The position numbers were made by a program, and so were the translations under genes. From contig DATDPP010000079.1 of the NCBI GenBank assembly GCA_035292685.1, positions 170,971-234,970 of the forward strand: a stretch of DNA of 64,000 nucleotides, written 5' to 3'. Positions 1 to 64,000 of this stretch are shown one piece after another (position 1 is the stretch's first letter; each line of letters starts with the position of its first letter). Source of the stretch: Acidimicrobiia bacterium (GTDB taxonomy: Bacteria; Actinomycetota; Acidimicrobiia; Spongiisociales; ZC4RG35). The notes beneath the pieces are model-generated. The model saw only the letters and a program-made list of their open reading frames with translations, made no database searches and had not been told where the DNA came from.

Positions 1-7
1 AGCCGCC

Positions 8-1474
8 ATGGCCCTGGTCGCCGGATCGATGGTCCTGCTGTTGGGCATGGCCGCCTTCGGAACCGACCTCGCCTGGTTCTATCTCAACGCGAGCCGGGTC
101 CAGCGCGCCGCCGATGCCGCGGCGCTCGGGGGTGTGGTGTGGATGCCAGGCAACCTGGGCACCGCCACCGGCACCGCCTTCGACATCGCACTGCGCAATG
201 GGTACGACGACGCGGACGCCGACGTCACAGTGACCCCGATCGACATTCCGGGCGCCCCCAACGAGTTGGAGGTCACCGTACGCGACATCGTCCCGACCTT
301 CTTCGCCCAGATCTTTGGCTTCGACACCATGGCCATCTCCCGCACCGCCCGGGCCGAGTACATCCCACCCTTGAAGCTGGGGAGCCCGACCAACAAGTTC
401 GGCAATGATCCCAGCTGTTACATATCCAACCCTGATTGCGCCGGGAACTTCTGGGCCAACATGCATGGGCGTAACACCGACACCCGAATGGGTGACGCCT
501 ACGCCTCCTTCTGTGCCGACGGGGGCGGTTCCACCAACGTTTGCGGAGCCAACCCCTCCTACCGGAGCACCGGCTATCTCTATGGCGTGATCCCCAACGG
601 GAACAGCTTCACCCTCCAGGTGCTGGACATGAACTTCCGCAACGAGTCGGGTGGAGTTGCCAATGGTGACCCCTGGCGCACCGGTGACCACAACAATTTC
701 TGCGGCGGTGGGGGTTGTGTAGGCCCAACCGTGACGGTGCGGGTCTACCTCCCCGACCCGACCCCGCTCGACCTCTCGGACAACACTCTTGTATGCGAGG
801 AGGTCTACGGCCCCCAGGCTCAAATCAACCCGGATAGCGACCCACCTTTCAACGGGGCCGGGGCCAACTGGAACTGGGACACAACTTGCAATGCCGGCAT
901 CAACACCAGCGCCAGCCCCAACGGGATCTGGGTGGTCCAGGTTGTCAACACCACGGCCACCAATGTCAATACCAGCGGGCTCAACCGCTACTCGATCCGA
1001 ACCAGCACCGGGAACCTGTTCGGGCTCGGCGACTTCTCCCTCTTCAACAACTCGACGGCAAGTACTTCAAACTTCTATCTGGCTGAAGTCCCCGACTTTT
1101 ACGCCGGGAAGACCTTTGTCGTCGAGCTCTACGACCCCGGTGACGTCGCCGGCGGAGCCAACGGCCAGATCCAACTGCGGACACCCTCCGGCAGCGTCCA
1201 AGCAAGCTGCGAGATGTTTGTCAGAAACGAGGTCACCGATCCTTGGGTCTCGAGAGGGATTCTGAGCCCCTGTCAGTTCAACGTTCAGAACAACGGTGGT
1301 GTCAACGACTACAACGGTGACTGGGTCAAACTGGAGTCCGTTCTCCCCGGACCCGGCTCCTACACCGGTGGGTGGTGGCGGATCACCTACAACTTCTCCG
1401 GTGGGGTCTCCGACACCACCACTTGGCGTGCCTACATGGTCGGCAACCCCATTCACCTGGTGCCTGTCCCCTAG
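8..1474 (+). CDS. TadG-like large protein, paralog 1. N-terminal TM helix plus a Flp pilus-assembly TadE/G-like (Tad) domain, then a Cys-rich C-terminal domain. Possibly 5'-partial: the reading frame is open to the window edge and the paralogs carry about 20 more N-terminal residues.
   Basis: N-terminus MVLLLGMAAFGTDLAWFYLNASRVQRAADAAALGGVV matches the TadE/G-like signature. It is paralogous to the ORFs at 2136..3635 and 6277..7686, sharing motifs including FYLAEV..AGK..EL(Y/F)DPGD and C-terminal TTWRAYMVGNPIHLVP. Confidence 0.6.
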   Translation: MALVAGSMVLLLGMAAFGTDLAWFYLNASRVQRAADAAALGGVVWMPGNLGTATGTAFDIALRNGYDDADADVTVTPIDIPGAPNELEVTVRDIVPTFFAQIFGFDTMAISRTARAEYIPPLKLGSPTNKFGNDPSCYISNPDCAGNFWANMHGRNTDTRMGDAYASFCADGGGSTNVCGANPSYRSTGYLYGVIPNGNSFTLQVLDMNFRNESGGVANGDPWRTGDHNNFCGGGGCVGPTVTVRVYLPDPTPLDLSDNTLVCEEVYGPQAQINPDSDPPFNGAGANWNWDTTCNAGINTSASPNGIWVVQVVNTTATNVNTSGLNRYSIRTSTGNLFGLGDFSLFNNSTASTSNFYLAEVPDFYAGKTFVVELYDPGDVAGGANGQIQLRTPSGSVQASCEMFVRNEVTDPWVSRGILSPCQFNVQNNGGVNDYNGDWVKLESVLPGPGSYTGGWWRITYNFSGGVSDTTTWRAYMVGNPIHLVPVP

Positions 1475-1513
1475 CGGCTTCGCATTGTCCGGCGGGCGTT
1501 TTCCTTCAAGAAA

Positions 1514-1557
1514 TCTGGCGAATCTGCCGACATTGACTCGGAGTCATTCGCCAGATG
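1514..1557 (+). promoter_or_regulatory. Nested hairpin in the TadG1-TadE1 intergenic region. A 10-bp stem TCTGGCGAAT/ATTCGCCAGA encloses an inner GACTCgGAGTC palindrome. The right arm overlaps the ATG of the downstream TadE-like gene at 1555.
   Basis: Inverted repeat read directly from the sequence at 1514-1523 and 1546-1555, with the inner palindrome at 1535-1545. Confidence 0.45.
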
Positions 1558-2139
1558 AAGCCCATCACATTCCAATCCCCAGCCAGTAGAAGCGGCACCG
1601 CCCGTCAGCGTGGGGCCGCCCTCATCGAGGCCGCCATCGTCTTCCCGATCTTGATCCTGATCATCATGGGGATCCTGGAGATCGGCCTCGCTTTCAAGGA
1701 CTACCTCACCGTTTCCTACATTTCACGTGAGGCAGCCCGGGTGGGTGCCCTGGCTGGAGACGACGCGGATGCCGATTGCGCCATCCTCGAGGGAATCGGC
1801 ACGGTGGCCACCGCAGGCGACCTGGCTCGCATCACATCGATACAGATCTTCAAGGCCGACATCAACGGAACTCAAGGCGTGACGAACTACGCCGTGTTCG
1901 ACGGGGGAGACCCGAGTCTTTGCAATGTCCCCGCCCAACCATCCGACACATGGACCATCAACCCGATTGGCTGGGTCGCCACCTCCCGTCAGACGGCAGT
2001 CGGCGACGACGCACTCGACATCATCGGGGTCAGAATCATTATGACCCATGACTGGGTCACCAACTTTGCGCCGTTCCGAGGCTCGATCACCATTGACGAG
2101 TCCACTATCACCCGTCTCGAGCCAAAGGTCTTCGAATGA
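1555..2139 (+). CDS. TadE-like pseudopilin (Flp-pilus minor pilin-like), subtype A.
   Basis: Prepilin-type leader with G^AALIE (Glu at +5) followed by a hydrophobic helix IVFPILILIIMGILEIGLAF. Its C-terminus (RLEPKVFE) resembles the ORF at 5735..6280. The stop overlaps the next start (ATGA at 2136-2139). Confidence 0.65.
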   Translation: MKPITFQSPASRSGTARQRGAALIEAAIVFPILILIIMGILEIGLAFKDYLTVSYISREAARVGALAGDDADADCAILEGIGTVATAGDLARITSIQIFKADINGTQGVTNYAVFDGGDPSLCNVPAQPSDTWTINPIGWVATSRQTAVGDDALDIIGVRIIMTHDWVTNFAPFRGSITIDESTITRLEPKVFE

Positions 2140-3635
2140 AATATGCGATTCTGGAACGATTCACCCGACGCACCGATGGCGAGGATCGGGGCATGGCGCT
2201 GCCGCTCGTCGCCTGCATGATCGTCGTTCTGCTCGGCGTGTCCGCCTTCGCCGTCGATCTGGGATGGCTTTATCTCAACGGGGCTCGCCTCCAGCGCGGG
2301 GCCGACTCATCGGCTCTGGCCGGTGTGGTCTTCCTTCCCGGGGACACCGACGGTGTGGACGACAACACACTGGGCGCTGCCAACGCCAATGGCTATGACA
2401 TCGGGGACATCAACGGCACCCCGGTGGTTGGAGGGGGGCCCGACGATCTCGACTGGCGCCAACTCGCGGACAACAAGCTCGAAGTGACCCTGGCTACCCA
2501 GATCCCGACCTTCTTCGTGAAGCTGTTCGGATTCGACTCGTTCGACATAACCAGGGTGGCCACCGCCGAGTACGTGAAACCGGTTCCGATCGGCAGCCCC
2601 GATCCCTGTTTCGGAGTCGGCATCACCAGTATTCAGAGCGGTGACTGCAACCCGGCCACCGCCCAACGATTCTGGGCAGCCGTCTCGGGCCCCTATACCA
2701 ACAAGTGGAACGGTGACGCCCACTCGACGCTGTACTGGGACGACGACGGCACCTGGAACCAGGAGTCGACCAACACCGAGTACCGCTCCGACGGCTACTA
2801 CCTGGCGATAGACGTCCCATCCGGTGTGTCCGGCCTCACAGTCCGCGTCTACGACGCCGGCTTCTACAACCGTGCCAGCTTCGACACCGAGACCGGCGAT
2901 CGCACCCAGGACACCGGTGGCGGGGCCGACACCCATTTCCAGATGTACCTCTTCGACGACACCCCGCTCGACCCCACCAACAACACACCGATCAGCGGAT
3001 GTTCGACTGGGAGCGGCACCTTCAACATCGCCGCCGAGGCCTCGTCGGGCACCTACAAGAACAGATGGGTCACGCTCTGTACCCTGTCAGGCGCTGTTGC
3101 CCCCGGGATCTATGTGGTCCGGGTCTGGACAGACGGCAATGACGGTGGCACCAACCAGTTTGCGGTTCGAGCCAACACCTCCAGCGCGGCAAACGCACGG
3201 GTTTACGGGATCAACGACATCTCGATCTTCACCAACCAGTCGGGCCTCACGACATTGCACGTTGCCGAAGTCGCCCAAGTGCATGCGGGCAAGACCCTCG
3301 AACTCCAGTTCTACGACCCTGGCGAGGACGACCAGGACGCCTTCATGACGGTCAAGAACCCCAGCGGAAGCACCGCCACCTGCGATTGGGTGGCCAAGAA
3401 CGAGGCAGGCACGGTGGTCGACTCCGGTTCAGGGAGTTGCAGCCTCCAGACATCGGACGGCAATGCCTTGTTCAACGGGCTTTGGGTGACCGCCCAGGTT
3501 GACATTCCCGACAGTTACACCTGCACCACCAACTGCTGGTGGAAGATGGAGATCGACAACTCCCAGCCCCATGACCGCACCACCTGGGCGGCGCGGATCA
3601 TCGGCAACCCCGTCCGATTGGTTCCCAACGAATGA
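2136..3635 (+). CDS. TadG-like large protein, paralog 2.
   Basis: AFAVDLGWLYLNGARLQRGADSSALAGVV TadE/G-like N-domain. Shared C-domain motifs WVTLCTL, RVYGINDISIF, HAGKTLELQFYDPGE, CWWKMEID and TTWAARIIGNPVRLVP. Confidence 0.6.
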   Translation: MKYAILERFTRRTDGEDRGMALPLVACMIVVLLGVSAFAVDLGWLYLNGARLQRGADSSALAGVVFLPGDTDGVDDNTLGAANANGYDIGDINGTPVVGGGPDDLDWRQLADNKLEVTLATQIPTFFVKLFGFDSFDITRVATAEYVKPVPIGSPDPCFGVGITSIQSGDCNPATAQRFWAAVSGPYTNKWNGDAHSTLYWDDDGTWNQESTNTEYRSDGYYLAIDVPSGVSGLTVRVYDAGFYNRASFDTETGDRTQDTGGGADTHFQMYLFDDTPLDPTNNTPISGCSTGSGTFNIAAEASSGTYKNRWVTLCTLSGAVAPGIYVVRVWTDGNDGGTNQFAVRANTSSAANARVYGINDISIFTNQSGLTTLHVAEVAQVHAGKTLELQFYDPGEDDQDAFMTVKNPSGSTATCDWVAKNEAGTVVDSGSGSCSLQTSDGNALFNGLWVTAQVDIPDSYTCTTNCWWKMEIDNSQPHDRTTWAARIIGNPVRLVPNE

Positions 3636-4204
3636 GCGCCGGCCGCCGACCTTGTCGAAACGGAAACGAGAAGGGCGCCACCCTGATCGAGTTTTCCCTC
3701 ATCTTCGCCTTCTTGATGATGATCGCCCTTGGCGCCTACGAGTACGGAATGGCCTTCCGTGACTGGCTCTCGGTGACAGTTGCCACCCGGGAAGGCGGCC
3801 GGGTCGCGGCATCAGCGGCCAACTTCGGCGAGGCCGACTGCGTGATCCTCGAAGCTGCCACCGGTGCCCTCCAGTCGTTGCAAACCGGTGAGGTCGAATT
3901 CGTTCACATCTACAAGTCCGACATCAATGGTTCCTACCCAGGGTCCAACAGCTTCACGCGGATCTATCGGCCCTCGACTCCGGCCGACCTCGACCTGGTC
4001 GTGTGTGATGGCTCGACCTGGTTTGCCACCAACCTCGGCAGCAACTGGGACCCGGACGACAGGGTGAACGCCACGGGGGCAGCGGACTGGATCGGGGTTC
4101 GGGTCGAGTTCGAGCACCAATGGCAGACCAATTTCCTGTGGTGGAACGGATCGGTCGACTGGGACGATGACGCGGTGTTCCGGATGGAGCCACCGGCGCC
4201 ATAG
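3632..4204 (+). CDS. TadE-like pseudopilin, subtype B.
   Basis: Leader KG^ATLIEFSLIFAFLMMIALGAYEYG (Glu +5). C-terminal FLWWNGSVDWDDDAVFRMEP matches the ORF at 7683..8213. ATGA overlap with the upstream gene. Confidence 0.65.
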   Translation: MSAGRRPCRNGNEKGATLIEFSLIFAFLMMIALGAYEYGMAFRDWLSVTVATREGGRVAASAANFGEADCVILEAATGALQSLQTGEVEFVHIYKSDINGSYPGSNSFTRIYRPSTPADLDLVVCDGSTWFATNLGSNWDPDDRVNATGAADWIGVRVEFEHQWQTNFLWWNGSVDWDDDAVFRMEPPAP

Positions 4205-4248
4205 ACCGGGATCGGTCTCCTTCCGCCAGGCTCCCTAGCCTGTAGCAA

Positions 4249-5100
4249 ATGCTTTCTCCTCCTGAATACATGCCCGCGTTGATCACGCCTTTCACCCGAA
4301 GTGGTGAGGTCGATACCAGGGCCCACACCCACAACCTACGGGTCCTCGCCGAAAAGGGAATCGAGGGTTTCGTGATCGGCGGTTCCAACGGTGAGGGCCC
4401 CTATCTCGAGCCCGGCGAGCGCAGCAGCCTGGTCAAGACCGGTCGGCGTCGCAAAGCCCATTTCATGGTGGGGATCGCGGCCGAGTCGACAAGGGTGGCT
4501 GTTCGCCAGATACAGGAAGCAGCCGACGCGGTGGCCGACAGCGTGCTGGTGATGACCCCCACCACCCTGGCTCGGGGGCGCGACGAGGCGATTCTCCGCT
4601 TCTATCGGACCATCGCCGACATGTCACCGCTGCCTGTGTTCATCTACTCGGTGCCGAGTGTCACCAGCTACAACCTGCCCATCGAGCTGGTGTGGCGTCT
4701 CTCCCGGCATGACAACGTCATCGGGATGAAGGACTCCAGTGGTGACGTGGTGCGACTTCAAGCCATCATCGACGCCACCCCACCCGGCTTCCTCCTCTAC
4801 TCGGGGTCGTCACAAGCGTTGACTGCGGCCATGGCCGTGGGCTGTCATGGCGCGATCACCGGATCCGGGAACTATGTGCCTGCCCTCGTGCTGCAGACGC
4901 TGGAGGCAGCCAGGCAAAGCCCGGAGATGGCCCGAAGGCTGCAGAAACGACTCAGCTCGGTGAGCGCCGAAGTCGATGCCCACGGGATCCCGGGGGTGAA
5001 GGCGGCGGCCAAGGCAGCCGGTCTCGATCCCGGGTATCCGCGCGAACCCCTGACCCGGCTCTCCCGGGGCGCGGAAACCTCCATCGCCAAGCTGATCTGA
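4249..5100 (+). CDS. Dihydrodipicolinate synthase (DapA/NAL) family protein.
   Basis: MPALITPFTRSGEVD...GFVIGGSNGEGPYL...IGMKDSSGD (Schiff-base Lys context) is typical of the DapA family. The start could instead be the internal Met at 4270. Confidence 0.7.
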   Translation: MLSPPEYMPALITPFTRSGEVDTRAHTHNLRVLAEKGIEGFVIGGSNGEGPYLEPGERSSLVKTGRRRKAHFMVGIAAESTRVAVRQIQEAADAVADSVLVMTPTTLARGRDEAILRFYRTIADMSPLPVFIYSVPSVTSYNLPIELVWRLSRHDNVIGMKDSSGDVVRLQAIIDATPPGFLLYSGSSQALTAAMAVGCHGAITGSGNYVPALVLQTLEAARQSPEMARRLQKRLSSVSAEVDAHGIPGVKAAAKAAGLDPGYPREPLTRLSRGAETSIAKLI

Positions 5101-5117
5101 CCCAACCCGCGTTCCTA

Positions 5118-5151
5118 ATGCATCGCGTCACGCATCCGTGACGCGATGCAT
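5118..5151. terminator. Perfect 15-bp inverted repeat ATGCATCGCGTCACG / CGTGACGCGATGCAT with a 4-nt loop, downstream of the DapA-like gene. Read as a rho-independent-type hairpin with no U-tract, or alternatively a palindromic operator.
   Basis: Read directly from the sequence. Confidence 0.5.
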
Positions 5152-5234
5152 CCAGTACAGCCGCGATGCAGGCGAGCGTGCTCTGCACGGCTAGTACCAT
5201 CTGCCGTTCTACCGATCATCAAGGAGAGAACGCC

Positions 5235-5618
5235 TTGTCCAAGTTTCTCAGCGAAGAGTGGACCGCGGAGGTGACCACCGCCCTCGACCAGCACCCGGGT
5301 TTCCGGAACGCCATCGGATCCGCCGACCTCAGCATCCAGTTCGTCGTCAGCGACACCCCCGACGGCGAGGCCGGGTACTACCTGAGGTCCAGCGGTGGCA
5401 TTCCCACCTTGGCGATCGGGACTCTCGAGGGCGCCGATGTCACGGTCAGACAGAGTTATGACACCGCGACCGCAATCTCCAAGGGCGAGTTGAACACCCA
5501 GACCGCATTCATGACCGGCAAGGTCAAGGTCTCAGGGAACCTCGCCAAGCTGATGATGCACCAGTCGGCAATCCAGCAATGGAATGCGGCAACAGCCGAC
5601 CTCGAAATCGACTACTGA
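5235..5618 (+). CDS. SCP2 sterol-carrier-like domain protein.
   Basis: SKFLSEEWTAEVTTALDQHPGFRNAIGSADLSIQFVV...TAFMTGKVKVSGNLAKLMMH is typical of SCP-2. A probable TTG start at 5235 is assumed; the tracked ORF begins at 5166. Confidence 0.6.
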   Translation: MSKFLSEEWTAEVTTALDQHPGFRNAIGSADLSIQFVVSDTPDGEAGYYLRSSGGIPTLAIGTLEGADVTVRQSYDTATAISKGELNTQTAFMTGKVKVSGNLAKLMMHQSAIQQWNAATADLEIDY

Positions 5619-5734
5619 TCACCGACTAGTCATTTCACGTAAATAACAGGGGGACTCTGGTTACCGACCTCCGTGGGTCGGATAATGTTGCGACGCTGAA
5701 GCAGGCGCGCCGCCGTGTCACGTCAGGGGCTGAA

Positions 5735-6280
5735 ATGGGCAAGGGAGAAAAGAACCGGGGTGCGACCATGGTCGAGGCCGCCATGATCTTCCCTTTGATG
5801 ATCTTGCTCACGGTGAGCATCCTCGAACTGGGGATGGCGTTCAAGGACTTCCTCACTGTCTCCTTCACTGCCCGCGACGCAGCGCGCGTCGGGTCGCTCG
5901 CCGGGAACGACCCGGAGGCGGATTGCGACATCATCCAGAGTGTGGTCGCCGCCTTCGGCCCAACCGATCTCGCCGGAGTGGACATCCTCATCTTCAAGGC
6001 CAACGAAGCGACGGGGAACCCGGTCGTGGGCCAGGTCAACACCTGGACATTGAGGCCCTCGGGTGACCCCACCACCTGTCTTCCCCTCGATTGGTCGATC
6101 ACCGAGAATTGGCCGAGCACGACCCGTCAGGTGAATGTCGGCCCCACTACCAAGCTGGACATACTCGGTGTGACCATCGAGACCACCCACCAGTGGATCA
6201 CCGGTCTGCCGCCTTGGCGGGGAACCATCAACGTGGATAGGACTGCCTTGCAAAGGATCGAGCCGGAGGCCTTCGAATGA
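5735..6280 (+). CDS. TadE-like pseudopilin, subtype A.
   Basis: Leader NRG^ATMVEAAMIFPLMILL. High similarity to the ORF at 1555..2139 (AFKD(Y/F)LTVS, ADC, IFKA, HQWITG, C-terminal RIEPEAFE). Stop overlaps the next start (ATGA at 6277-6280). Confidence 0.65.
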   Translation: MGKGEKNRGATMVEAAMIFPLMILLTVSILELGMAFKDFLTVSFTARDAARVGSLAGNDPEADCDIIQSVVAAFGPTDLAGVDILIFKANEATGNPVVGQVNTWTLRPSGDPTTCLPLDWSITENWPSTTRQVNVGPTTKLDILGVTIETTHQWITGLPPWRGTINVDRTALQRIEPEAFE

Positions 6281-7686
6281 AACGACACCGGCGGGAAGAG
6301 GGCATCGCCTTGGTCTGGCTGGCTATCACCCTCGTCCTCTTGATCGGGATGGCCGGGTTTGGCGTCGACCTCGGGTGGATCTATCTCAACACCAGTCGAG
6401 CCCAGAAGGCAGTCGATTCCGCCGCCCTAGCCGGGGTCGTCAATCTCCCGGGATTCATCGCCCAGGCAGAAATCGACGCCGAGGACGCCACCCAGGCCAA
6501 TGGCTTCGACCCGGACGGTCTGACCGTCACCCCACTGGCCGACAACAAGCTGCACGCAGAGTTGCGTATCCAGGTCGAGCCCTTCTTCCTCAGTGTGCTC
6601 GGTTTCGACCATTTCAACATCACCAGGGAGGCCACCGCCGAGTACATCAAACCGGTGCCCTTGGGGAATCCAAACAACTGTTTTGGCTGCCCGGGTGTCG
6701 GCGACTCCTGGGCGGCCATCTCCTCCCAGTTCATCCACAAAGAGCACGGGGATCCCTATTCCACCCAATGCCGGGTGCCGTCGAGCCCTTCATCCTGCTC
6801 GTCGGGCAACAGTGACTACAACCGCGGCGGCGCCTATGCCGGGTACTACTACGGGATCGAGGTCTTTGGCACGTCGCAAGATCTGACCGTCGAACTCTTC
6901 GATCCCAGGTTCAATCGACGCCCTCAGGACGAGGGAACGGGCGATTTCGCCTTCAGCGGCAGCCCAGGCCCAATCACCACCTACTCGCTGCACATGGTGG
7001 ACATAACCCCGCTCAACCCCATCGACAACCCGGCGATTCCTGGATGCTCCATGACTCTCGATCCCGACACCACACCCACATTCCAGGACCAATGGGTCAC
7101 GCTTTGCACTCTTGGCGGGTCTCTCACTCCAGGAATCTATGTCCTCCATGTCACCAACACCGGCACCGGGATTGCCAGCAACCACTATTCGGTGCAGGCC
7201 AACGTCGCAAGCGGCACCACCCCCCGGGTCTACGGCATCAACGACATGTCGATCTGGTCGAATGATCTGGTCCAGAACAGCCAGCTCTACATCGCCGAGA
7301 TCGAGGCGATCCATGCCGGGAAGAAACTCGAGCTTCAGTTCTACGACCCCGGCGATGCCAACGCCAACTCCTTCATGACCCTGCTCTCACCCAACGGGCC
7401 CGTCAACTGCAGCTGGACGGTCTGGAACCACAACCTCACCGCCCAGAGCCAGCCTCCCGGCTCCGGCGCCTGCACCTGGCAGACCACCAACACGTCGCGG
7501 CCTGGGGATCGACGGGTCTACAACGAGCAATGGATCGTGGCAACGATCGATCTCCCGGACGATCCCGCCGACATGTGCAACGGCTCCGACTGTTTCTGGA
7601 AGATGGAGCTCGACTTGAGCGACCCCACCGAGCGCACCACCTGGCGGGCCCGGGTCATCGGCAACCCGGTGCGTCTGATTCCATGA
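6277..7686 (+). CDS. TadG-like large protein, paralog 3.
   Basis: GFGVDLGWIYLNTSRAQKAVDSAALAGVV N-domain. C-domain motifs WVTLCTL, RVYGINDMSIW, HAGKKLELQFYDPGD, CFWKMELD and TTWRARVIGNPVRLIP. Confidence 0.6.
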   Translation: MKRHRREEGIALVWLAITLVLLIGMAGFGVDLGWIYLNTSRAQKAVDSAALAGVVNLPGFIAQAEIDAEDATQANGFDPDGLTVTPLADNKLHAELRIQVEPFFLSVLGFDHFNITREATAEYIKPVPLGNPNNCFGCPGVGDSWAAISSQFIHKEHGDPYSTQCRVPSSPSSCSSGNSDYNRGGAYAGYYYGIEVFGTSQDLTVELFDPRFNRRPQDEGTGDFAFSGSPGPITTYSLHMVDITPLNPIDNPAIPGCSMTLDPDTTPTFQDQWVTLCTLGGSLTPGIYVLHVTNTGTGIASNHYSVQANVASGTTPRVYGINDMSIWSNDLVQNSQLYIAEIEAIHAGKKLELQFYDPGDANANSFMTLLSPNGPVNCSWTVWNHNLTAQSQPPGSGACTWQTTNTSRPGDRRVYNEQWIVATIDLPDDPADMCNGSDCFWKMELDLSDPTERTTWRARVIGNPVRLIP

Positions 7687-8213
7687 ACAGGGATCGGGGC
7701 ACCGCAGCGATCGAATTCGCCTTTGCCATCATGGTCCTGCTGCTGCTGGCCATCGGCGCTTACGAATGGGGAACCGGGTTCTCCGACCGGATATCGATGT
7801 CATCTGCGGTGAGGGAAGGGGGGCGGGTAGGAAGCGCGGCTGGGGACAATCCCGATGCCGATTGTCGGATCATCGAAGCCTCCGCCGGAGCGCTCAACGG
7901 GGTCTCGGGGAACTCGGTCAAACAGCTTTGGGTCTACGAATCAGACTCCGGTGGGACCGTGGGTCTCAACCGCCAGATCTATCGACCCGCTCAAGCCGCC
8001 GAGCCGGGGCTGACCTGCACCGGCGGAAGGTGGTTCTTGGTGGCCAACGGGTGGCCCTATAGCGTCCGGGAGAATCTGAGTGCGAACCGGGACTGGCTCG
8101 GGGTCAAGGTGATCGTCGATCACGAGTGGAGAACCGGGTTTCTCTGGTGGAACGGCACAGTGGAATGGGAGGAGGACGCCGTCTTCCATCTCGAACCCGG
8201 GGTCGTCAGCTAA
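7683..8213 (+). CDS. TadE-like pseudopilin, subtype B.
   Basis: Leader DRG^TAAIEFAFAIMVLLLLAIGAYEWG. C-terminal FLWWNGTVEWEEDAVFHLEP. ATGA overlap with the upstream gene. Confidence 0.65.
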   Translation: MNRDRGTAAIEFAFAIMVLLLLAIGAYEWGTGFSDRISMSSAVREGGRVGSAAGDNPDADCRIIEASAGALNGVSGNSVKQLWVYESDSGGTVGLNRQIYRPAQAAEPGLTCTGGRWFLVANGWPYSVRENLSANRDWLGVKVIVDHEWRTGFLWWNGTVEWEEDAVFHLEPGVVS

Positions 8214-40871: not shown

Positions 40872-41942
40872 GTGGATCTGACGAGCCTGAACCTGGACCA
40901 GAAAGAACAAACCTTCGTCGACGCCGAGACGGTGATCGCCAAAATGCGGGCGATCCAACTCGACGTGCTCGAGGATTTCGATCACGGTCAAGTGGCAACC
41001 GCTGACGGTTCTCGTTCGCTATCGGAGTGGACTGCGGCCCGCCTCGACATCCACCCGGACACGGCAAAGAGCCTGGTGCGGACCATGCGGCGCACCCAGG
41101 ACCGACCCGACCTGCGCTATTCTCTGGCATCAGGTGAGATCACATTCGATCGGCTGGAGGCGGTCTCCCGGATCTCTGAAGATGTCGGATTGCTCCAGCA
41201 CCTGGACGTGTCCGGTGTACAGCGTGAGGCGGCGAAACGGGCACGAATCACGGCTGAAGACGAATACCGGACCGCTGATGACCGGTTCCTCGTGATGCAG
41301 CCATCTCTGGACGAATCCTGGTGGAAGTTGTGGGGAGGATTGGACGGAGTGTCTGGTGCCATCGTCGACAAGGTGCTCTCCGAGACCGCCGACGGTTTGC
41401 CGCTATTCCCCGACGGGACCAGAGGGGACTCCTCCTGGCGCCGGGCCACCGCACTGGTCGAACTGGCCATAACCGATGACCCTCCCCCGGCCCAGATCAC
41501 GGTATTCGTCGATGCCAAACACGCTGCCGCCTCCAACGGCGAAGCCGGCGTCATCCTCGAAGCCGGACCTCGGATCGGACGCGATGCCCTGGAAGCAATG
41601 CTGTGCGATGCAACCACGGAATTGACCGTCCAAGGAGAAGACGGCACCCCAATGGCCTACGGGCGGAAAACCAGGTCTATCCCACCCGCCCTGCGGCGAG
41701 CCATCATCCACCGAGACGGGGACCGGTGCGCCGCCGACGGCTGCGACAGCAACCATCGGCTCCAAGTACACCACCGGATACCCTGGAGCCAGGGCGGGCT
41801 CACCGACCCCGAGAATCTGATCACACTCTGTTGGTTTCACCATCAGGTCGTAGTCCACCAACGAGGCTTCACTTCCTATCGCCATCCCGACCACGGACGG
41901 ATCCGTTTTCGCCGCGCCGGTCCGAGGGGCCCGCCCGACTGA
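40872..41942 (+). CDS. DUF222 + HNH endonuclease (actinobacterial 13E12-repeat-type HNH protein).
   Basis: C-terminal CAADGCDSNHRLQVHHRIPWSQGGLTDPENLITLCWFHHQ (HNH with CxxC...HH...N...H) and an N-terminal DUF222-like region. GTG start with a GGAGG SD. Confidence 0.75.
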   Translation: MDLTSLNLDQKEQTFVDAETVIAKMRAIQLDVLEDFDHGQVATADGSRSLSEWTAARLDIHPDTAKSLVRTMRRTQDRPDLRYSLASGEITFDRLEAVSRISEDVGLLQHLDVSGVQREAAKRARITAEDEYRTADDRFLVMQPSLDESWWKLWGGLDGVSGAIVDKVLSETADGLPLFPDGTRGDSSWRRATALVELAITDDPPPAQITVFVDAKHAAASNGEAGVILEAGPRIGRDALEAMLCDATTELTVQGEDGTPMAYGRKTRSIPPALRRAIIHRDGDRCAADGCDSNHRLQVHHRIPWSQGGLTDPENLITLCWFHHQVVVHQRGFTSYRHPDHGRIRFRRAGPRGPPD

Positions 41943-42016
41943 CTGACTCTGTCAGCGAACCGACGCTATGGCGTGAGCCGCCCTCGTGCCTGACACGCTC
42001 TGTGCGAGTATCCCCT

Positions 42017-42586
42017 ATGCCTTGGGAGCCTTCCTCGCTGACCCTGTCGTTCTTAGCCCGTGGAAGCGTAGGACGCGTCAACGTGGACGTCTGGGAGAAC
42101 ATCGACCCTTTGAGCATCGGATCCGACCCATCTGCTCTTGGGTTCCCCGTGTGTCGAGCGATCGTGGATTACGACCCAGGCGGGTACAGATCATTGATTG
42201 GATGGGTGCAGGTTGTCGGGCTGGTGTCGGCCGACGGGGGAGCGGCGCGCCAATTCGAAGCTGATCCACTTCAAGTATTCGCTGAAATCGAGACACCCTT
42301 TGCCTTCTACGGAATCAATCCTCAGCTCTTCGATGCTCCATCCCGCGAAGACCGCGATCTCTCCCTCGACTGGCTAGCACATAGTTTCCTTTGCATCGCT
42401 CCCTCAAGTCCCATGGCTACTGAGGTCGAAGCGGTCGCCGGGTTCAGTTGGGGATTCAGACTCGTTAACGGTGAGGTTGTGGCCGTCCCGCCCGAGCGCC
42501 TGCACAGGTCTGATTGGGCTGGGCATACTCCACTGCTTTCCGAGACCTATCTAACGTGGAACTTCGGCGCGAACCAGGATTGGTAG
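42017..42586 (+). CDS. Hypothetical protein (189 aa), unknown family. Convergent with pcrA, with a 12-bp gap.
   Basis: Open frame with protein-like composition in a visibly lower-GC stretch. No recognisable motifs and a weak RBS. The ATG at 42017 is preferred over the long out-of-frame overlap with the HNH gene. Confidence 0.4.
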   Translation: MPWEPSSLTLSFLARGSVGRVNVDVWENIDPLSIGSDPSALGFPVCRAIVDYDPGGYRSLIGWVQVVGLVSADGGAARQFEADPLQVFAEIETPFAFYGINPQLFDAPSREDRDLSLDWLAHSFLCIAPSSPMATEVEAVAGFSWGFRLVNGEVVAVPPERLHRSDWAGHTPLLSETYLTWNFGANQDW

Positions 42587-46725: not shown

Positions 46726-48732
46726 TCAGGCGGTCCCGACGTCTTCGATGCCGATCAGCCGGCGCAACGTGGAGGTGAGGACGCCCTGACGCAAGTCGAA
46801 TTTGTCGAGATAGGCATTGACGCCTACCTCCCAGGCGGCGCGCTTCTCCTCTTGGGTGGCAACACCGGAGACCATGACGATTGGAACTCGAACTTCGGAA
46901 GCCCTCATGGCGCGGACCAGTTCGACGCCATTCGACCGGGGCATCGAGTAATCGACGACCATGGCATCGAAGTCGTCCTCTGCCATCGCCATCACCGCCT
47001 CCCGGGCGCTTCCGGCCACCTCCACCTCGAAGCCGGCGCCGTTCAATGTTGCCGAGAGGAGCTGGCGAACCCCGGCCGAGTCGTCGACGACGAGGATGCG
47101 GGGTCGCCGTCCCACCAGACGGGGACGTCGTCTCGCCAGGATCCCGAGGAAGTTCGGGTCGATAACGACCAGCACCTGCCCCCCACCGAGGAGAGCGGCG
47201 CCGGTGACGTGTCCCGGGCCTTCGAGGATCGGCGCCAGGTGCTTGACCGCCACCCGGCGTCGATCGATCAACTCGCCCACCGTCACCGCAACCAGTCCGA
47301 ACCTGGTGTTCATGATCACCAACTCGGATTCGTCGGTGTCGGCGCCGGTTCCAACAGCAGCCGATAGCGACACGACCGGGATCGCCCCGCTCTCGAAATG
47401 GAGCTCGCGACCCCCATTCGTGGTGTTGATCTCCGCCTTGGAGAGGGGCATGGAAGCCTCGACAGAGGCCTCCGGGAATCCCCAGAACTGGTCCCCAGCT
47501 GAGACGACGACAACATTCTGGAGGACCATCGACATCGGGAGCGTCATCGTCACCGTGGTACCGCGGTCCTTCATCGACTCGATGTGAACCGCGCCGTGGA
47601 CCCGCTCCACCGTGTCCCGAGCCACCGCCAGTCCCTCGCCATTCCCCGAGAAGTCGGTGGTTTCCCTGGTAGTCGAGAAACCCGGTTGGAACAGCAGCGG
47701 GCTCAGATCCGAATAGACGAAGGGGAAACTGTGCTCTTTCGCGATCTCAGCCACCTGGTCCCAATCGATTCCCGCCCCGTCGTCGGACACCGAAACTTCC
47801 ACTCCCTCCTCCACCACCCGGGCTGCAACCCTGACCACACCGGTCGCGGGCTTGCCGGCGGCGATGCGCTCGGATGCGAATTCGATCCCGTGATCTATGG
47901 CATTGACCAACAGATGACGCAACGGCTCGCGCAGCAGGTCGACGATCTGGCGATCGAGCTGCACGTCGTCCCCAAGGATCTCGAATCGAACGTCCTTGCC
48001 CATCCGTCGTCCTAGATAACGCACGAATTGGGGGAAAGTCGCCGCCGCGTCCCGGAAGGAGACATTGGCGAGTGCGACTGCCTGATCCTGGATATCCCCG
48101 ATCGAGGTGCTCAGCTTCTCCAGCTGTTCTCGCCACGAACGGCGGTATACGGAGGGATTCGAGCCCTCGATCGACACCAGAGCCAGGTCCGCCAGGGCGT
48201 CGGTATCCAAGGCAACCTCGACGATCCGGTTGATCAACCGGTACAGATCTCCGGTGTCTACCCGGGTGGCGCCCCCCAGCAACGACTCGGAGACCGAAGA
48301 CAGCAAGCCTCCGAGACTGCCCGGTTCCGGACGCCGGACCGGAGCGATCTTCACCTCATGACGTGACGCTTCGATTCCCCCCACCAGCCGCTCCGTCAGA
48401 TCTGGGAGCTGCCCCCCGGCCTGGTCCGACATCGAGGCCACCAGATGACCGGCCGCACTCTCCATCGCCATCACGATGTCAAAGTCGGGCTCGTGACCCT
48501 CGGAGATGAGCCGCCACATTTCCTCGAGTCGTGCCGCCGCCTCCCGAATCACCTCGTATCCCAGGAGACCGGCGGATCCCTTGATCGTGTGGGCGTCACG
48601 GACCAGATCGGGCACCCAGGCAGGGTCCAATGTGTCATTGGCGAGGGCACGGGCGCCCACGACCAGGCGACCGGCCCTCTGTTCCAGCTCTTCTCGGAAG
48701 ATGCGAGTCAGTTCAGGGGTGTTGAGGTCCAA
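46726..48732 (-). CDS. CheA-like hybrid histidine kinase: Hpt(P1)-dimerisation-HATPase-CheW-like domain with a C-terminal receiver (REC).
   Basis: AHTIKGSAGLLG (Hpt His), NAIDHGIE...DDGAGID (HATPase), a CheW-like segment, then ILVVDDSAGVRQLL...DAMVVDYSMP (REC with Asp). Confidence 0.8.
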   Translation of the reverse strand: MDLNTPELTRIFREELEQRAGRLVVGARALANDTLDPAWVPDLVRDAHTIKGSAGLLGYEVIREAAARLEEMWRLISEGHEPDFDIVMAMESAAGHLVASMSDQAGGQLPDLTERLVGGIEASRHEVKIAPVRRPEPGSLGGLLSSVSESLLGGATRVDTGDLYRLINRIVEVALDTDALADLALVSIEGSNPSVYRRSWREQLEKLSTSIGDIQDQAVALANVSFRDAAATFPQFVRYLGRRMGKDVRFEILGDDVQLDRQIVDLLREPLRHLLVNAIDHGIEFASERIAAGKPATGVVRVAARVVEEGVEVSVSDDGAGIDWDQVAEIAKEHSFPFVYSDLSPLLFQPGFSTTRETTDFSGNGEGLAVARDTVERVHGAVHIESMKDRGTTVTMTLPMSMVLQNVVVVSAGDQFWGFPEASVEASMPLSKAEINTTNGGRELHFESGAIPVVSLSAAVGTGADTDESELVIMNTRFGLVAVTVGELIDRRRVAVKHLAPILEGPGHVTGAALLGGGQVLVVIDPNFLGILARRRPRLVGRRPRILVVDDSAGVRQLLSATLNGAGFEVEVAGSAREAVMAMAEDDFDAMVVDYSMPRSNGVELVRAMRASEVRVPIVMVSGVATQEEKRAAWEVGVNAYLDKFDLRQGVLTSTLRRLIGIEDVGTA

Positions 48733-53336: not shown

Positions 53337-54392
53337 TTAGGTTCGCGAGGCCAGGTAGTCCTCCTGTGACTCGGTCAAACCCCACGAGCCATCGAACCTG
53401 GCGCTCATGACGTCGGCCCCTCGATCCTCATCCTGGAATCGGGTGGCCGAAAGGGCGGTGCCCGACAAATCGGCCTCTCGCAGATCGGCGCCGGCGAAGT
53501 TGGCTCCCTCCAGATCTGACCCCGAGAGATCCGCCCCGCGCAAATTTGCCCCTCGAAGGTCACTCAGGGACAGATTCGCCTCCCTCAGGTCAGCTCCTGC
53601 CAGATCGACCCCCGCCAGGTTGCAATTCTTCAGGTAGAGCTGTTTCAAGTCGCGGGTCTCCGGGGCCCAAGACCTGAGATCCAGGCCAACCATGACCCGG
53701 CCCCGGTATTTCTCGTAGGACGAAGCGGTCAGAAAACGGTGCAACTGATGGGGCTGGATCGAACCGGTGGTGAATCTCTCATCACCGGGAAGAGGGTCGG
53801 CGTTGTTGTGATAATTGGAATTCGCCTCCCACCACCCCGGGCGGTCCTCGGCAAGCACGACGATCCTCCTCAGCCATTTCACCGACTTGTAGAAATAGCG
53901 TCCCCCGGTGAAAACCCGAACCGGGCCGCCGTGTTCGACACTGAGCGGCTCACCGTCGGCCGAATGCACAAGCCAACTGGCCTCCGAGGCAAGCTCGATC
54001 GGAAGAGAAGTGTGATGGTCCCGCTCGGAGTAGGACTCGAAGCTTATGAACGCCGCCTCCCCTCTCACCCCTGCATCCTCTAGCAGACTTTGTAAAGGCA
54101 AGCCCATCCATTTCATGGCGAGTCGGCTCCAGCTCGTGACACAGTGAATGTCCGACACCAGGGTGAAGTTGGCGCGCTCGAGAAAGGCCTCGAGCCCGAG
54201 AGCGAAGGGACGATCCACCAGACCGACGATCTCGAGCGACCATTGTGAGGGGTCGGACAACTCGGCCGAGGGTTGTCTTTCGCCGACAACCGGGAAGCGC
54301 TTGGTCTCGATCTGTCCGGGGGGAAGAGGGGAGCCCGTCACGGCGACAGTGATCGTCGGGCCCGGAACGCTCTCGAGGTCTTGTGGGCTCAT
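53337..54392 (-). CDS. Sulfite-oxidase-family molybdopterin-binding domain fused to C-terminal pentapeptide repeats.
   Basis: N-domain SDIHCVTSWS...GGPVRVFTGGRYFYKSVKWLRRI resembles the YedY/MsrP/SO Moco domain. C-terminus has (A/S)(D/N)L..-type tandem pentapeptides: ANLSLSDLRGANLRGADLSGSDLEGANFAGADLREADLSG. Confidence 0.6.
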   Translation of the reverse strand: MSPQDLESVPGPTITVAVTGSPLPPGQIETKRFPVVGERQPSAELSDPSQWSLEIVGLVDRPFALGLEAFLERANFTLVSDIHCVTSWSRLAMKWMGLPLQSLLEDAGVRGEAAFISFESYSERDHHTSLPIELASEASWLVHSADGEPLSVEHGGPVRVFTGGRYFYKSVKWLRRIVVLAEDRPGWWEANSNYHNNADPLPGDERFTTGSIQPHQLHRFLTASSYEKYRGRVMVGLDLRSWAPETRDLKQLYLKNCNLAGVDLAGADLREANLSLSDLRGANLRGADLSGSDLEGANFAGADLREADLSGTALSATRFQDEDRGADVMSARFDGSWGLTESQEDYLASRT

Positions 54393-57937: not shown

Positions 57938-58525
57938 GTGCCACGACCCCTCTTCGAGACCGATCGCCTGATCATCCAGCGCTTTACCAGACGCGACCAT
58001 TCCACCCTCGATGACGCCATACGTTCCTCGCTGCCCGAGTTGAATCAATGGCTCCCCTGGGCGCGTATGGACTATGAGCTCGGGGACACGACGTCGTTCA
58101 TCCGGGAATCGATCCAGGCCTGGAAGGAAGAAAGGGCCTGGGATTATTCGATCCGGCACAAGGAGAGGCCCGACCGTCACCTCGGCAATGTATCGCTGTG
58201 GACTGTCTCCAAGCTGGGCAAGATCGCCGAGTTCGGATACTGGGTCCGCACCGACGAGAACTCAAAGGGGATCTGCACCGAGGCAGTGGAGTGCCTCCTC
58301 GCCGAAGCGTTCGGGCCCCTCGGCTATCACAAGGTGACTCTTCGCATCGCCATCGGCAACGACCCGTCCGACAGGGTGGCCGGCAAGCTGGGTTTCACCC
58401 GAGAGGGGGTCCTCCGCGAGGAGCTGTTGATCAGGGGAAACTGGGTCGATCACTCCTTGTGGTCCCTCCTCGACCGTGAATACCGGTCGTTGCGACGAAC
58501 CGGCGAGGTGCGAAGGACGGGCTGA
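57938..58525 (+). CDS. GNAT family N-acetyltransferase (RimJ/RimL-like).
   Basis: FETDRLIIQRF...IGNDPSDRVAGKLGFTREGVLRE. Confidence 0.75.
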   Translation: MPRPLFETDRLIIQRFTRRDHSTLDDAIRSSLPELNQWLPWARMDYELGDTTSFIRESIQAWKEERAWDYSIRHKERPDRHLGNVSLWTVSKLGKIAEFGYWVRTDENSKGICTEAVECLLAEAFGPLGYHKVTLRIAIGNDPSDRVAGKLGFTREGVLREELLIRGNWVDHSLWSLLDREYRSLRRTGEVRRTG

Positions 58526-58551
58526 AGGAGCCGGGCCCGAGAGACTGAGGC

Positions 58552-58597
58552 GAGGCGGCAGTTCGGGCCGACCGGCGTCTGTTTGCCCGAGACGGTG
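58552..58597 (+). repeat. Copy B of the ~46-bp intergenic repeat (see 22367..22412), located downstream of the GNAT gene.
   Basis: GAGGCGGCAGTTCGGGCCGACCGGCGTCTGTTTGCCCGAGACGGTG. Core identical to copy A. Confidence 0.6.
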
Positions 58598-58659
58598 TTG
58601 GCGCGAGAAGATCGAGCGTTTACCCATTGATAGTTGGTCGAGGGCAAAGTCGGCCCGAA

Positions 58660-60141
58660 TCAGCTGCTGGCGAGCACCCGCGAGGCGTCCCCGACGAAAG
58701 TGACGACAGCGGGGAACAGCCCAACGATCACGGTGAGGGCGAGCGATAGACCGAGGGCGAGGCGCAGCGATCCAGCAGGGGCGGCCGCGGCGTCGTCCTC
58801 GAACTCCCCGATCGGGTCGTCGATCCACACCGTCTTCACCACCCGGGCGTAGTAGTAGATGGCGATCACTGCGTTGACGGCGGCGATGACAGCCAGGACC
58901 ACTGTCGTGGTGCCTCCCGCGATCATGACCGACCGAAACATCTCGAACTTGGCGAACCAACCAGCAAGCGGGGGGATGCCCGCCAGGCTGAAGAAGAAGA
59001 CCGCCACCAGGATCGCCAGTCGGGTATCGACCCGACCCAGGCCACTCCAGGCGCGAATCTCGCCGGAGCGCGTCTTTCGGGCGCCGGCGATGACAACGGC
59101 GAAGGCACCGAGGTTCATCACCGCGTAGATCGCCAGATAGACCAGCGTCGCAGAGAACGCTTCCTCCAGATTCGCGCCCACCACCGCGGCCGAAGCGAAG
59201 GGCACCAGCATGAAGCCCGCCTGGGCCACCGATGAGTAGGCCAGCAGGCGAACGATGTTGGACTGGCGAAGTGCAGACAGATTCCCAACGGTCATCGACA
59301 GGGCAGCCAGCACCCACAACGCAGGGGCCCATATCTCCGACACACCGGGCAGAGCGAGATACATGACGAGCAACATCGCCACGAACCCGGCTGCCTTCGA
59401 GTTGACCGACAGATAGGCGGTGACCGGGGTGGGTGCACCCTCGTAGGTGTCGGGGGCCCAGAAATGGAACGGAACGGCAGCGATCTTGAACCCGAAGCCG
59501 ACGATCACGAAGAGGATGGCCAGGATCAGTGCCGGCTCGTCCGCCATCCCTGCAGTGGCCTCGGCCAGGCCGGTGAAGGTGACCTCTCCGGTGAGACCGT
59601 AGAGGAACGACATTCCGTAGAGCAGGATGGCCGTGGAGAGGACACCGAGTATGAAGTACTTCATCGACGCCTCGTTGGACTTGACGTCGCCTTTGCGCCA
59701 GCCCGCCAGGAGATACAAGGGGCCGGTCGTCAGCTCGAGAGCGACGAAGAGGATTATGAGGTCGCGGGCCGAGGCCATGACCATCGAGCCCAGGACCGAG
59801 GAGAGCAGCAGGAAGTAGTACTCGCCCTGGTAATAGCGGTCGGACTCGACGTAGTGGTGCGACATCAGGAACACCAGATAGGCCGCCACCACGAACAAGC
59901 CCTTCAACACCAGGGCGAACTCGTCAACCACATAGGAGCCGTCGAACATCGAGATTGTCTCCCCCTCGACCGCGAGAATCACCAGTGGGATGGCGGCCAG
60001 CGCGGTGCCAGCCACCGCCACGGTGGCCGTCCAGTATTTCTGGGGGCGAGGCAGTACCAGATCGATGGTGAACACCGTCAGCAGCGTGGCGATGATGACC
60101 AGCTCCGGGGCAAACGCGACATAGTCGATGTCGAAGGTCAC
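58660..60141 (-). CDS. nuoN: NADH-quinone oxidoreductase subunit N.
   Basis: NuoN/ND2 family multi-TM antiporter-like subunit (FHFWAPDTYEGAPTPVTA). Confidence 0.9.
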   Translation of the reverse strand: MTFDIDYVAFAPELVIIATLLTVFTIDLVLPRPQKYWTATVAVAGTALAAIPLVILAVEGETISMFDGSYVVDEFALVLKGLFVVAAYLVFLMSHHYVESDRYYQGEYYFLLLSSVLGSMVMASARDLIILFVALELTTGPLYLLAGWRKGDVKSNEASMKYFILGVLSTAILLYGMSFLYGLTGEVTFTGLAEATAGMADEPALILAILFVIVGFGFKIAAVPFHFWAPDTYEGAPTPVTAYLSVNSKAAGFVAMLLVMYLALPGVSEIWAPALWVLAALSMTVGNLSALRQSNIVRLLAYSSVAQAGFMLVPFASAAVVGANLEEAFSATLVYLAIYAVMNLGAFAVVIAGARKTRSGEIRAWSGLGRVDTRLAILVAVFFFSLAGIPPLAGWFAKFEMFRSVMIAGGTTTVVLAVIAAVNAVIAIYYYARVVKTVWIDDPIGEFEDDAAAAPAGSLRLALGLSLALTVIVGLFPAVVTFVGDASRVLASS

Positions 60142-60244
60142 GGGGTGACCTTCCGTATTTCGTAATCCGTATTCCGTAATCCGTCAGAGAAGAACGGACA
60201 ACGGAGAACGGAAACCGGGGAACGGCGAGCGAAGCGAGCCACCG
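60142..60244. repeat. Intergenic repeat at the nuoM-nuoN junction: CGTAATCCGT tandem units followed by complementary ACGGA(N)AACGGA units, then CGAGCGAAGCGAG. Forms an imperfect palindrome.
   Basis: Homologous to 63863..63965 (GTGACCT(T)CC...CCGTAATCCGT.ATCCGTAATCCGT...ACGGAAAACGGAAAACGGAA...CGAGCGAGAGCGAG). Confidence 0.65.
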
Positions 60245-61858: not shown

Positions 61859-61873
61859 TCTTCTCAGCCTCTC

Positions 61874-63862: not shown

Positions 63863-63965
63863 GGAGTGACCTCCTTGGAGTCCGTAATCCGTGATCCGTA
63901 ATCCGTATACGGAAAACGCAAAACGGAAAACGGAAGACGGGCCGAGCGAGAGCGAGGCCCTCTCA
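63863..63965. repeat. Second copy of the nuo intergenic imperfect-palindromic repeat, at the nuoL upstream junction.
   Basis: TCCGTAATCCGTGATCCGTAATCCGTATACGGAAAACGCAAAACGGAAAACGGAAGACGG...CGAGCGAGAGCGAG, aligned to 60142..60244. Confidence 0.65.
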
Positions 63966-64000
63966 CCATCTCATCAGGCTCAGATCGTCGGCATTCGCCG

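Follow-up and report, generated by a model that had tools for sequence, protein, structure and literature searches.

Three TadE/TadG-type gene sets at a housekeeping locus of an Acidimicrobiia bacterium, candidate alternative tip modules of a Tad pilus

The first 8,213 positions of a 64 kb stretch of DNA from an uncultured Acidimicrobiia bacterium (hereafter the window) carry a locus in which small TadE-like prepilins and large TadG-like proteins are encoded in three paralogous sets, designated units 0, 1 and 2. The large proteins are named L0, L1 and L2 after their units, and the small proteins of units 1 and 2 are named SA1, SB1, SA2 and SB2 after their subtype (A or B) and unit; the small partners of unit 0, S0a and S0b, are encoded just 5' of the window. 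We consider it likely that these sets constitute three alternative TadE/F/G-type initiation or tip modules of a Tad (type IVc, Flp) pilus. The direct observations are the domain assignments, the coupling and paralogy of the genes, the way conservation is distributed and, in relatives, the position of homologs beside tad machinery. The initial annotation of this DNA had proposed a diversified minor-pilin or adhesin module that uses a Tad system encoded elsewhere, and this proposal is supported by the machinery linkage seen in relatives, by the combination of a variable middle with conserved ends in the large subunit, and by the precedent of the Myxococcus Kil system (PMC12075869). That the host genome itself encodes a Tad machine is inferred from class-wide conservation.

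Subunit architecture and linkage to Tad machinery in relatives

The assignment of the small and large proteins to TadE-like and TadG-like families was upheld by Pfam searches, in which all four small proteins of the window matched PF07811 (33.9-47.9 bits) and all three large proteins matched PF13400 (24.6, 36.1 and 41.7 bits), above gathering cut-offs of 22.9 bits for TadE PF07811 and 22.3 bits for Tad PF13400. When S0a and S0b are included, six of six small proteins present a short charged leader followed by a G^xxxxE motif and a hydrophobic helix, as initially described, and a motif scan of the window and the 8.4 kb upstream of it found this signature only in TadE-like open reading frames (ORFs). 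The glycine and glutamate of the motif (G20 and E25) are invariant in an alignment of 31 small-protein sequences, which argues for processing by a prepilin peptidase; cleavage is predicted after G20 in SA1 (RQRG^AALIE) and at the corresponding sites of SB1 (NEKG^ATLIE), SA2 (KNRG^ATMVE) and SB2 (RDRG^TAAIE). The division into subtypes A and B with distinct C-terminal motifs (FLWWNGSVDW in SB1) also held, since SA1 and SA2 are 44% identical and SB1 and SB2 42% identical, versus 30-34% between subtypes. The NCBIfam TadE models NF041390 (TadE_Rv3655c) and TIGR03816 (Rv3654c family) yielded best scores of 13-21 bits versus cut-offs of 40-51, placing the small proteins outside the mycobacterial TadE subfamilies. 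The AlphaFold2 (AF2) model of SA1 (pLDDT 86) predicts a lollipop-shaped protein with a long N-terminal helix (residues 15-67) and a five-stranded sheet. Each small protein has a conserved cysteine pair and each large ectodomain 8-10 cysteines, as expected of exported, disulfide-stabilised proteins.

According to structural modelling, the large proteins appear to be of the TadG/CpaL type, combining a pilin module, a large insert and a conserved extreme C-terminal strand. In L1 these parts correspond to a leader containing G19, a first helix (alpha1) and small sheet spanning residues ~20-150, an all-beta middle at ~160-470 and a C-terminal strand at 480-499; in the underlying model (pLDDT 84, pTM 0.74), residues 21-64 form a helix of 44 residues and 89-146 a small sheet, 180-470 are all-beta, and the two terminal strands fall within 480-496. 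No Pfam match to a vWA domain (von Willebrand factor A) with its MIDAS (metal ion-dependent adhesion site) was obtained in the large proteins, and a structure search with a large protein returned generic beta-sandwich matches only, with no solved homolog of the middle region. L0 additionally scored 21.6 bits with Tad_C PF09977, just below the cut-off of that family. Over their full length, L1 and L2 are 41% identical, L0 and L1 35%, and L0 and L2 32%.

Conservation across 35 large homologs peaks in alpha1 (0.83), where the pilin module ends (0.85) and, most strongly, in the last 19 residues (0.87). Several genomes encode mosaic orthologs, with an identity of 60-84% over the first 150 residues and of 26-58% in the middle. 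At the C-terminal end it is up to 95%, also with the middle at 26-48%, and the adjoining small partners remain 67-81% identical; this pattern suggests that the distal domain has been replaced or has diverged rapidly. Among the ortholog averages, the small partners of unit 0 are more conserved than its large protein (mean identities of 65, 65 and 52%), and the N-terminal module is more conserved than the middle, clearly so in unit 0 (66 vs 49%) and weakly in unit 2 (71 vs 66%). Mosaic orthologs of L1, L0 and L2 are found at loci L032 (3854-5383), L014 (9896-11512) and L030 (5068-6555 and 11299-12972), three-digit numbers denoting here and below loci in other genomes.

The occurrence of these sets was surveyed in a scan of one genome per species, and their genes were counted with hidden Markov models (HMMs) built from the window proteins. 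The closest homologs carry Acidimicrobiia names, and the scan yielded 76 loci, mostly from Acidimicrobiia and additionally from Chloroflexota, with 1-6 large genes per locus, each accompanied by one or two small partners. The flanks most often common to these loci are sdhA, sdhB, nadC, mdh and a pair of DapA-like and SCP2 genes. Orthologs of each of the three units, 45-87% identical and with conserved motifs, were identified in many Acidimicrobiia at the same position between sdhCAB and mdh-nadC, from which vertical inheritance follows. The complete three-unit layout also occurs at L030 and both small-large-small units at L038, and unit 2 is present in some genomes and missing in others. The sets are therefore a vertically inherited, copy-number-variable feature of the clade, and not an island or an artefact. 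At L020, L036, L056 and L039, five or six large genes with their small partners form a single array of ~10 kb. The window differs from L001 (JGI contig Ga0209108_10000009) by 11 substitutions in 12,139 nt and at least 24 contigs from metagenome assemblies of JGI and ENA encode the SA1 protein, indicating that the same population recurs across several public metagenomes.

In agreement with the initial observation that Tad machinery is absent from the 64 kb, Pfam searches of called genes, motif scanning and ORF inspection detected no T2SSE, T2SSF, Flp_Fap, RcpC, ParA-type TadZ or Peptidase_A24 gene in the window, and most other loci of the sdh-mdh type have no secretion ATPase within 10 kb. The large-protein family is nevertheless genetically tied to Tad pili, since in other Acidimicrobiia and Actinomycetota its members adjoin cpaB-tadZ-tadA-tadB-tadC-flp. 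In four lineages sampled by way of their CpaF proteins (L085, L089, L091 and L095), the gene order is large(~520 aa)-TadE-large(~500 aa)-polA-rpsA-cpaB-tadZ-tadA-tadB-tadC-(~455 aa)-flp, continuing with LuxR-type regulator-kinase-coaE-uvrB-uvrA, and flp is present in one or two copies on the opposite strand. Over its full length, the machinery-adjacent large protein of L085 can be aligned to L1 (27% identity, E 1e-43), and both have the motif TTW..R..GNPV.L at their ends. At L068, L072, L073 and L075, a TadE gene and a full-length large homolog divergently adjoin genes for RcpC/CpaB, ParA-type TadZ, T2SSE and two T2SSF proteins, and the Acidimicrobiia loci L054, L065, L069 and L083 have tadZ, tadA or tadB within 10 kb. 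Acidimicrobiia-named CpaF proteins at least 75% identical to the L083 ATPase used as query are abundant. Acidimicrobiia typically harbor sets beside the machinery, with extra sets at the sdh-mdh locus in the clade of the host. An annotation rule can be drawn: TadE-TadG-TadE or TadE-TadE-TadG genes between sdhCAB and mdh in Acidimicrobiia denote accessory minor-pilin sets, and the Tad machinery of Acidimicrobiia should be sought between rpsA and coaE-uvrB.

The machinery loci presented some further features. The flp gene adjoins genes for a LuxR-type response regulator and a HisKA_3 kinase in L085, L089, L091 and L095, and these two proteins likely regulate the pilus. Directly after tadC, the same loci encode a conserved ~455-aa membrane protein without Pfam match (L085 13336-14700; L089 13325-14716; L091 13321-14688; L095 13320-14681), and in L091 and L095-L098 a conserved ORF of ~90 aa separates the large minor-pilin gene from polA; the products of both genes may be lineage-specific Tad components. 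At L089 (1695-3190), the machinery-adjacent large gene is split into ORFs of 148 and 350 aa, reflecting a frameshift or pseudogene, or an assembly error.

Proposed tip modules and alternative explanations

A mechanism can be outlined by analogy with CpaJ/K/L and KilL/M/N. Each module would comprise two small TadE/TadF-type prepilins, one of type A and one of type B, and one large TadG/CpaL-type protein, and the tight coupling of the genes would deliver these subunits in matched amounts. Following membrane insertion through the N-terminal hydrophobic helix, a prepilin peptidase of the TadV/CpaA type would cut the small subunits after the conserved glycine of G^xxxxE, and the three subunits would join as a heterotrimer by bundling of their helices. 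The large subunit would then fold its C-terminal strand back on the sheet of the pilin module by beta-strand addition, licensing the polymerisation of Flp by a CpaF/TadBC motor whose genes lie elsewhere in the genome. The complex would come to lie at the pilus tip, where the all-beta middle of the large subunit, variable and rich in Cys, would be exposed as the binding surface, and the existence of three diverged sets here and of 1-6 in relatives would allow one machine to be fitted with alternative tips of different specificities. Processing, trimer formation, tip location, the single shared machine and the binding function are in this way all extrapolated from the better characterized systems.

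Several results weigh against this interpretation. Neither a Tad ATPase nor a platform protein, Flp or a prepilin peptidase was found for the host within the 64 kb and the 8.4 kb upstream, and the CpaF proteins traced to their loci came from other populations. The large proteins retain the glycine of the processing site but carry no Glu or Phe at +5 (consensus G^AALPxV), which renders their processing uncertain. The contrast in conservation between the N-terminal module and the middle is absent on average in unit 1 (55 vs 54%), and the TadE/F-like proteins of Micrococcus luteus were undetected in sheared pili (PMC4322843).

Other explanations may be put forward in place of alternative tips. 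If each set served its own type IV filament machine, the host would have to possess several Tad systems. Several tad loci do exist in some bacteria, as in Vibrio vulnificus according to a citation in PMC12075869, two tad clusters are required in M. luteus (PMC4322843), and the Acidimicrobiia Tad locus already has adjacent large-TadE-large genes of its own. We nonetheless regard this arrangement as unlikely, given that a single machinery set with the same polA-rpsA ... coaE-uvrB organisation was observed in the four sampled lineages and in L054 and L083, that a second ATPase lay nearby in 0 of ~60 loci of the sdh-mdh type, and that loci without machinery carry anywhere from 1 to 6 sets. A role without a filament, in which the trimers act as surface complexes anchored in the membrane or cell wall, or as a basal, wall-spanning collar that guides the pilus, would agree with the lack of machinery within 72 kb and with a large subunit that, having no +5 Glu, could remain anchored; a basal accessory structure was also favoured by the authors of the M. 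luteus study, TadE/F being absent from sheared pili (PMC4322843). The invariance of G^xxxxE in the small subunits, the linkage of the family to tadZABC-flp in relatives and a conserved C-terminal strand that fits the experimentally supported licensing by CpaL (PMC13533445) all point away from such a role, which we judge to be quite improbable. A more speculative form of it, to which we attach little credence, would have the sets recruited from Tad minor pilins as self-sufficient, membrane-anchored heterotrimeric "stub" adhesins or sensors that a monoderm cell displays without Flp polymerisation, their diversity arising through exchange of the middle of the large subunit; the arrays of relatives, with up to six sets at a locus, would form a surface-recognition repertoire.

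The remaining explanations concern the status of the genes themselves. Since TadE/F/G genes usually end tad operons (PMC12075869, PMC4322843), the locus could have been the pseudopilin tail of a canonical operon just beyond the window, an arrangement that would have overturned the initial proposal; however, no tad operon is present in the 8.4 kb upstream, the genes upstream and downstream are housekeeping genes, and the same housekeeping flanks recur in dozens of relatives, so that this explanation is refuted. It is also very unlikely that the extra sets are redundant, decaying duplicates or the product of misassembly. The split machinery-adjacent gene of L089 provides an example of apparent decay in the family, but nine of nine ORFs in the present locus are intact, orthologs with conserved motifs and 45-87% identity persist across many genomes, and the same sequence has been assembled independently in the JGI and ENA contigs mentioned above. 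Alternative tip modules of a Tad pilus therefore remain the explanation that we favor.

Layout and surroundings of the locus

Nine co-directional ORFs make up the locus (Table 1). They include the seven genes initially listed as co-directional, with which the ORF list agrees in position and strand. The view of the locus as a tandem array was borne out insofar as paralogous sets lie side by side, but the array is not contiguous, as two non-pilus genes are interposed between units 1 and 2. The first of these scored 156 bits on the TIGR00674 dapA model (cut-off 206) and is hence probably not a true dapA; the DapA-like/SCP2 pair is found at exactly this place (4249-5618) in ~25 related loci. Likewise, the initially proposed small-large-small triplet describes units 1 and 2, which follow the order small A-large-small B, but not unit 0. 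The two TadE genes directly upstream of the window, encoding S0a (193 aa) and S0b (188 aa), both carry PF07811 and overlap as TGATG, and L0 consequently closes a third set of the order small-small-large. The length initially read for L0 within the window had to be revised because the gene is cut by the window edge: with a GTG 41 nt upstream of position 1 as its probable start, L0 would have 504 aa, and this GTG overlaps the stop of the preceding TadE gene as GTGA and provides a leader resembling those of L1 and L2.

Table 1. Genes encoded at positions 1-8213 of the window.
Gene	Product	Unit	Position	Strand	Family match
L0	TadG-like large subunit	0	1..1474 (in-window ATG at 8)	+	PF13400, 24.6 bits
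SA1	TadE-like small prepilin, subtype A	1	1555..2139	+	PF07811, E 1.4e-12
L1	TadG-like large subunit, 499 aa	1	2136..3635	+	PF13400
SB1	TadE-like small prepilin, subtype B	1	3632..4204	+	PF07811, E 3.4e-8
DapA-like	DHDPS/DapA-like protein, non-pilus	between 1 and 2	4249..5100	+	PF00701, E 6.5e-46
SCP2	SCP2-domain protein, non-pilus	between 1 and 2	5166..5618	+	PF02036, E 1.9e-9
SA2	TadE-like small prepilin, subtype A	2	5735..6280	+	PF07811, E 2.8e-10
L2	TadG-like large subunit, 469 aa	2	6277..7686	+	PF13400, E 1.4e-10
SB2	TadE-like small prepilin, subtype B, 176 aa	2	7683..8213	+	PF07811, E 7.9e-9

All four ATGA stop/start overlaps initially reported were identified in the window, L2 having them at both ends, and the junction TTCGAATGAAA is common to units 1 and 2. 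The segmental duplication that had been deduced from these features must nevertheless be ancient, given that the paralogs are 32-44% identical at the protein level and that orthologs of each unit occur in many genomes, and the shared junction is accounted for by the conserved codons of the '...FE' end with its stop and of the 'MK...' start. Nucleotide similarity between units is ~70%, patchy and confined to the most conserved coding stretches, and together with the low paralog identity it rules out a recent segmental duplication. A horizontally acquired island was likewise discarded on the basis of the ordinary GC content of the locus (0.62 vs 0.61-0.67 elsewhere in the window) and its syntenic housekeeping flanks.

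The 8.4 kb upstream of the window encode RibD_C, MerR, Tricorn/PD40, BPA and WhiB proteins and sdhC-sdhA-sdhB, followed by the two TadE genes of unit 0. On the downstream side, the 3' end of SB2 lies 9 nt from a convergent mdh gene, beyond which nadCBA, icd, folD, purH, purN and genes of the kynurenine pathway and of histidine utilisation are found; the window further contains DUF2207, sucCD, tal, an HNH/DUF222 element, uvrD/pcrA, a CheA-like kinase, guaAB, trpS, LytR and nuoJ-N. An affiliation with Actinomycetota agrees with the WhiB protein and with a mycothiol-type MDMPI domain encoded in the flanks. Neither tRNA genes nor Rfam families were detected in the window, and a scan for promoters and terminators gave counts no higher than those of shuffled controls.

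Some of these neighbors are of interest in their own right. A DUF222 and HNH endonuclease gene (40872-41942), of a type that is repeated across actinobacterial genomes, precedes an ORF without Pfam match (41603-42586), and the two may form a small mobile element beside uvrD/pcrA. A CheA-like hybrid kinase with Hpt, HATPase_c, CheW and Response_reg domains (46726-48732, minus strand), with no other chemotaxis genes nearby, could be a regulator of surface behaviour. An unusual fusion of Oxidored_molyb and pentapeptide-repeat domains (53337-54392, minus strand) is translationally coupled to a LytR_cpsA_psr gene. The AT skew rises to between +0.18 and +0.20 at 58000-64000, versus ~0 to 0.08 elsewhere, coinciding with the minus-strand nuoJ-N genes.

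Comparison with known systems

The protein families concerned are already named, public annotation describing their members as "TadE/TadG family type IV pilus assembly protein" and "pilus assembly protein TadG-related protein", and multiple tip sets unlinked from machinery have been published; the locus thus reveals no new kind of system. A literature search for Acidimicrobiia with Flp or Tad returned nothing relevant. What is new is the lineage (monoderm Acidimicrobiia, together with Chloroflexota), the placement of sets in tandem at a conserved position among housekeeping genes, a distal domain that is all-beta and not of the vWA type, and the mosaic pattern of conservation. Acidimicrobiia and Chloroflexota are abundant in soils and groundwater and, to our knowledge, their surface appendages are almost unstudied. 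Were the tip-module interpretation true, the "adaptable tip" principle shown in 2025 for the Tad pilus of predatory Myxococcus would extend to free-living monoderm Acidimicrobiia and to Chloroflexota. With its conserved pilin module and C-terminal strand, its swappable middle and its 1-6 sets, the family would also constitute a natural experiment on tip licensing and on the evolution of specificity.

At the level of overall design, the sets resemble GspI/J/K of type II secretion and PilV/W/X-PilY1 of type IVa pili, in which a heterotrimeric minor-pilin cap primes the filament with the largest subunit on top (PMC13533445), although those proteins belong to other filament classes and no sequence homology to them was detected here. 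The TadE/F/G proteins of Aggregatibacter actinomycetemcomitans (Tomich et al. 2006, as cited in PMC12075869 and PMC4322843) belong to the same Pfam families, PF07811 and PF13400, the PF13400 protein likewise having a single N-terminal membrane helix and the small proteins a G/XXXXE site; their genes close the flp-tad operon at its 3' end, whereas those described here are unlinked and triplicated, and the similarity is restricted to N-terminal segments. The Flp system of M. luteus (tad-1/tad-2) is likewise actinobacterial, and the display of Flp there depends on TadE/F-like and PF13400 TadG-like genes (PMC4322843). In that organism, however, the minor-pilin genes lie inside tadA-tadB-tadC clusters, DNA uptake has been shown and there are no tandem paralogous sets (PMC4322843).

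A structural parallel can be drawn with Caulobacter crescentus CpaJ/CpaK/CpaL, which also comprises two small minor pilins and a large pilin-like protein with a conserved C-terminal strand. CpaL/TadG consists of a pilin module with a large insert, and without the beta-strand at its extreme C-terminus it cannot license assembly with CpaJ/CpaK (PMC12607857, PMC13533445). The insert of CpaL is a vWA domain with a MIDAS, which sets it apart from the L proteins with their lack of a vWA match, and Caulobacter has one set where the present locus has three.

The Kil system of Myxococcus xanthus provides a counterpart in gene organisation. Of its four paralogous KilL/M/N (TadE/F/G) triplets, three lie apart from the machinery genes, and the complexes, Tip1-Tip4, are partly redundant and can replace one another as tips of one Tad pilus (PMC12075869). 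The sets of the window share with it the presence of several paralogous E/F/G triplets apart from the machinery (three here, among housekeeping genes), a distal domain of the large subunit without solved structural homolog, the Cys-rich character of the proteins and the proposed role as interchangeable initiation or tip complexes. In view of this precedent, the initially noted departure from the canonical tad layout stands as regards the unlinking of sets from machinery, but it is less unusual than was assumed. The two systems differ in that the host is a monoderm Acidimicrobiia bacterium and Myxococcus a predatory diderm, in that the Kil sets are dispersed whereas the present ones stand together at one housekeeping locus, and in the distal domain itself, which is here a different, all-beta one.

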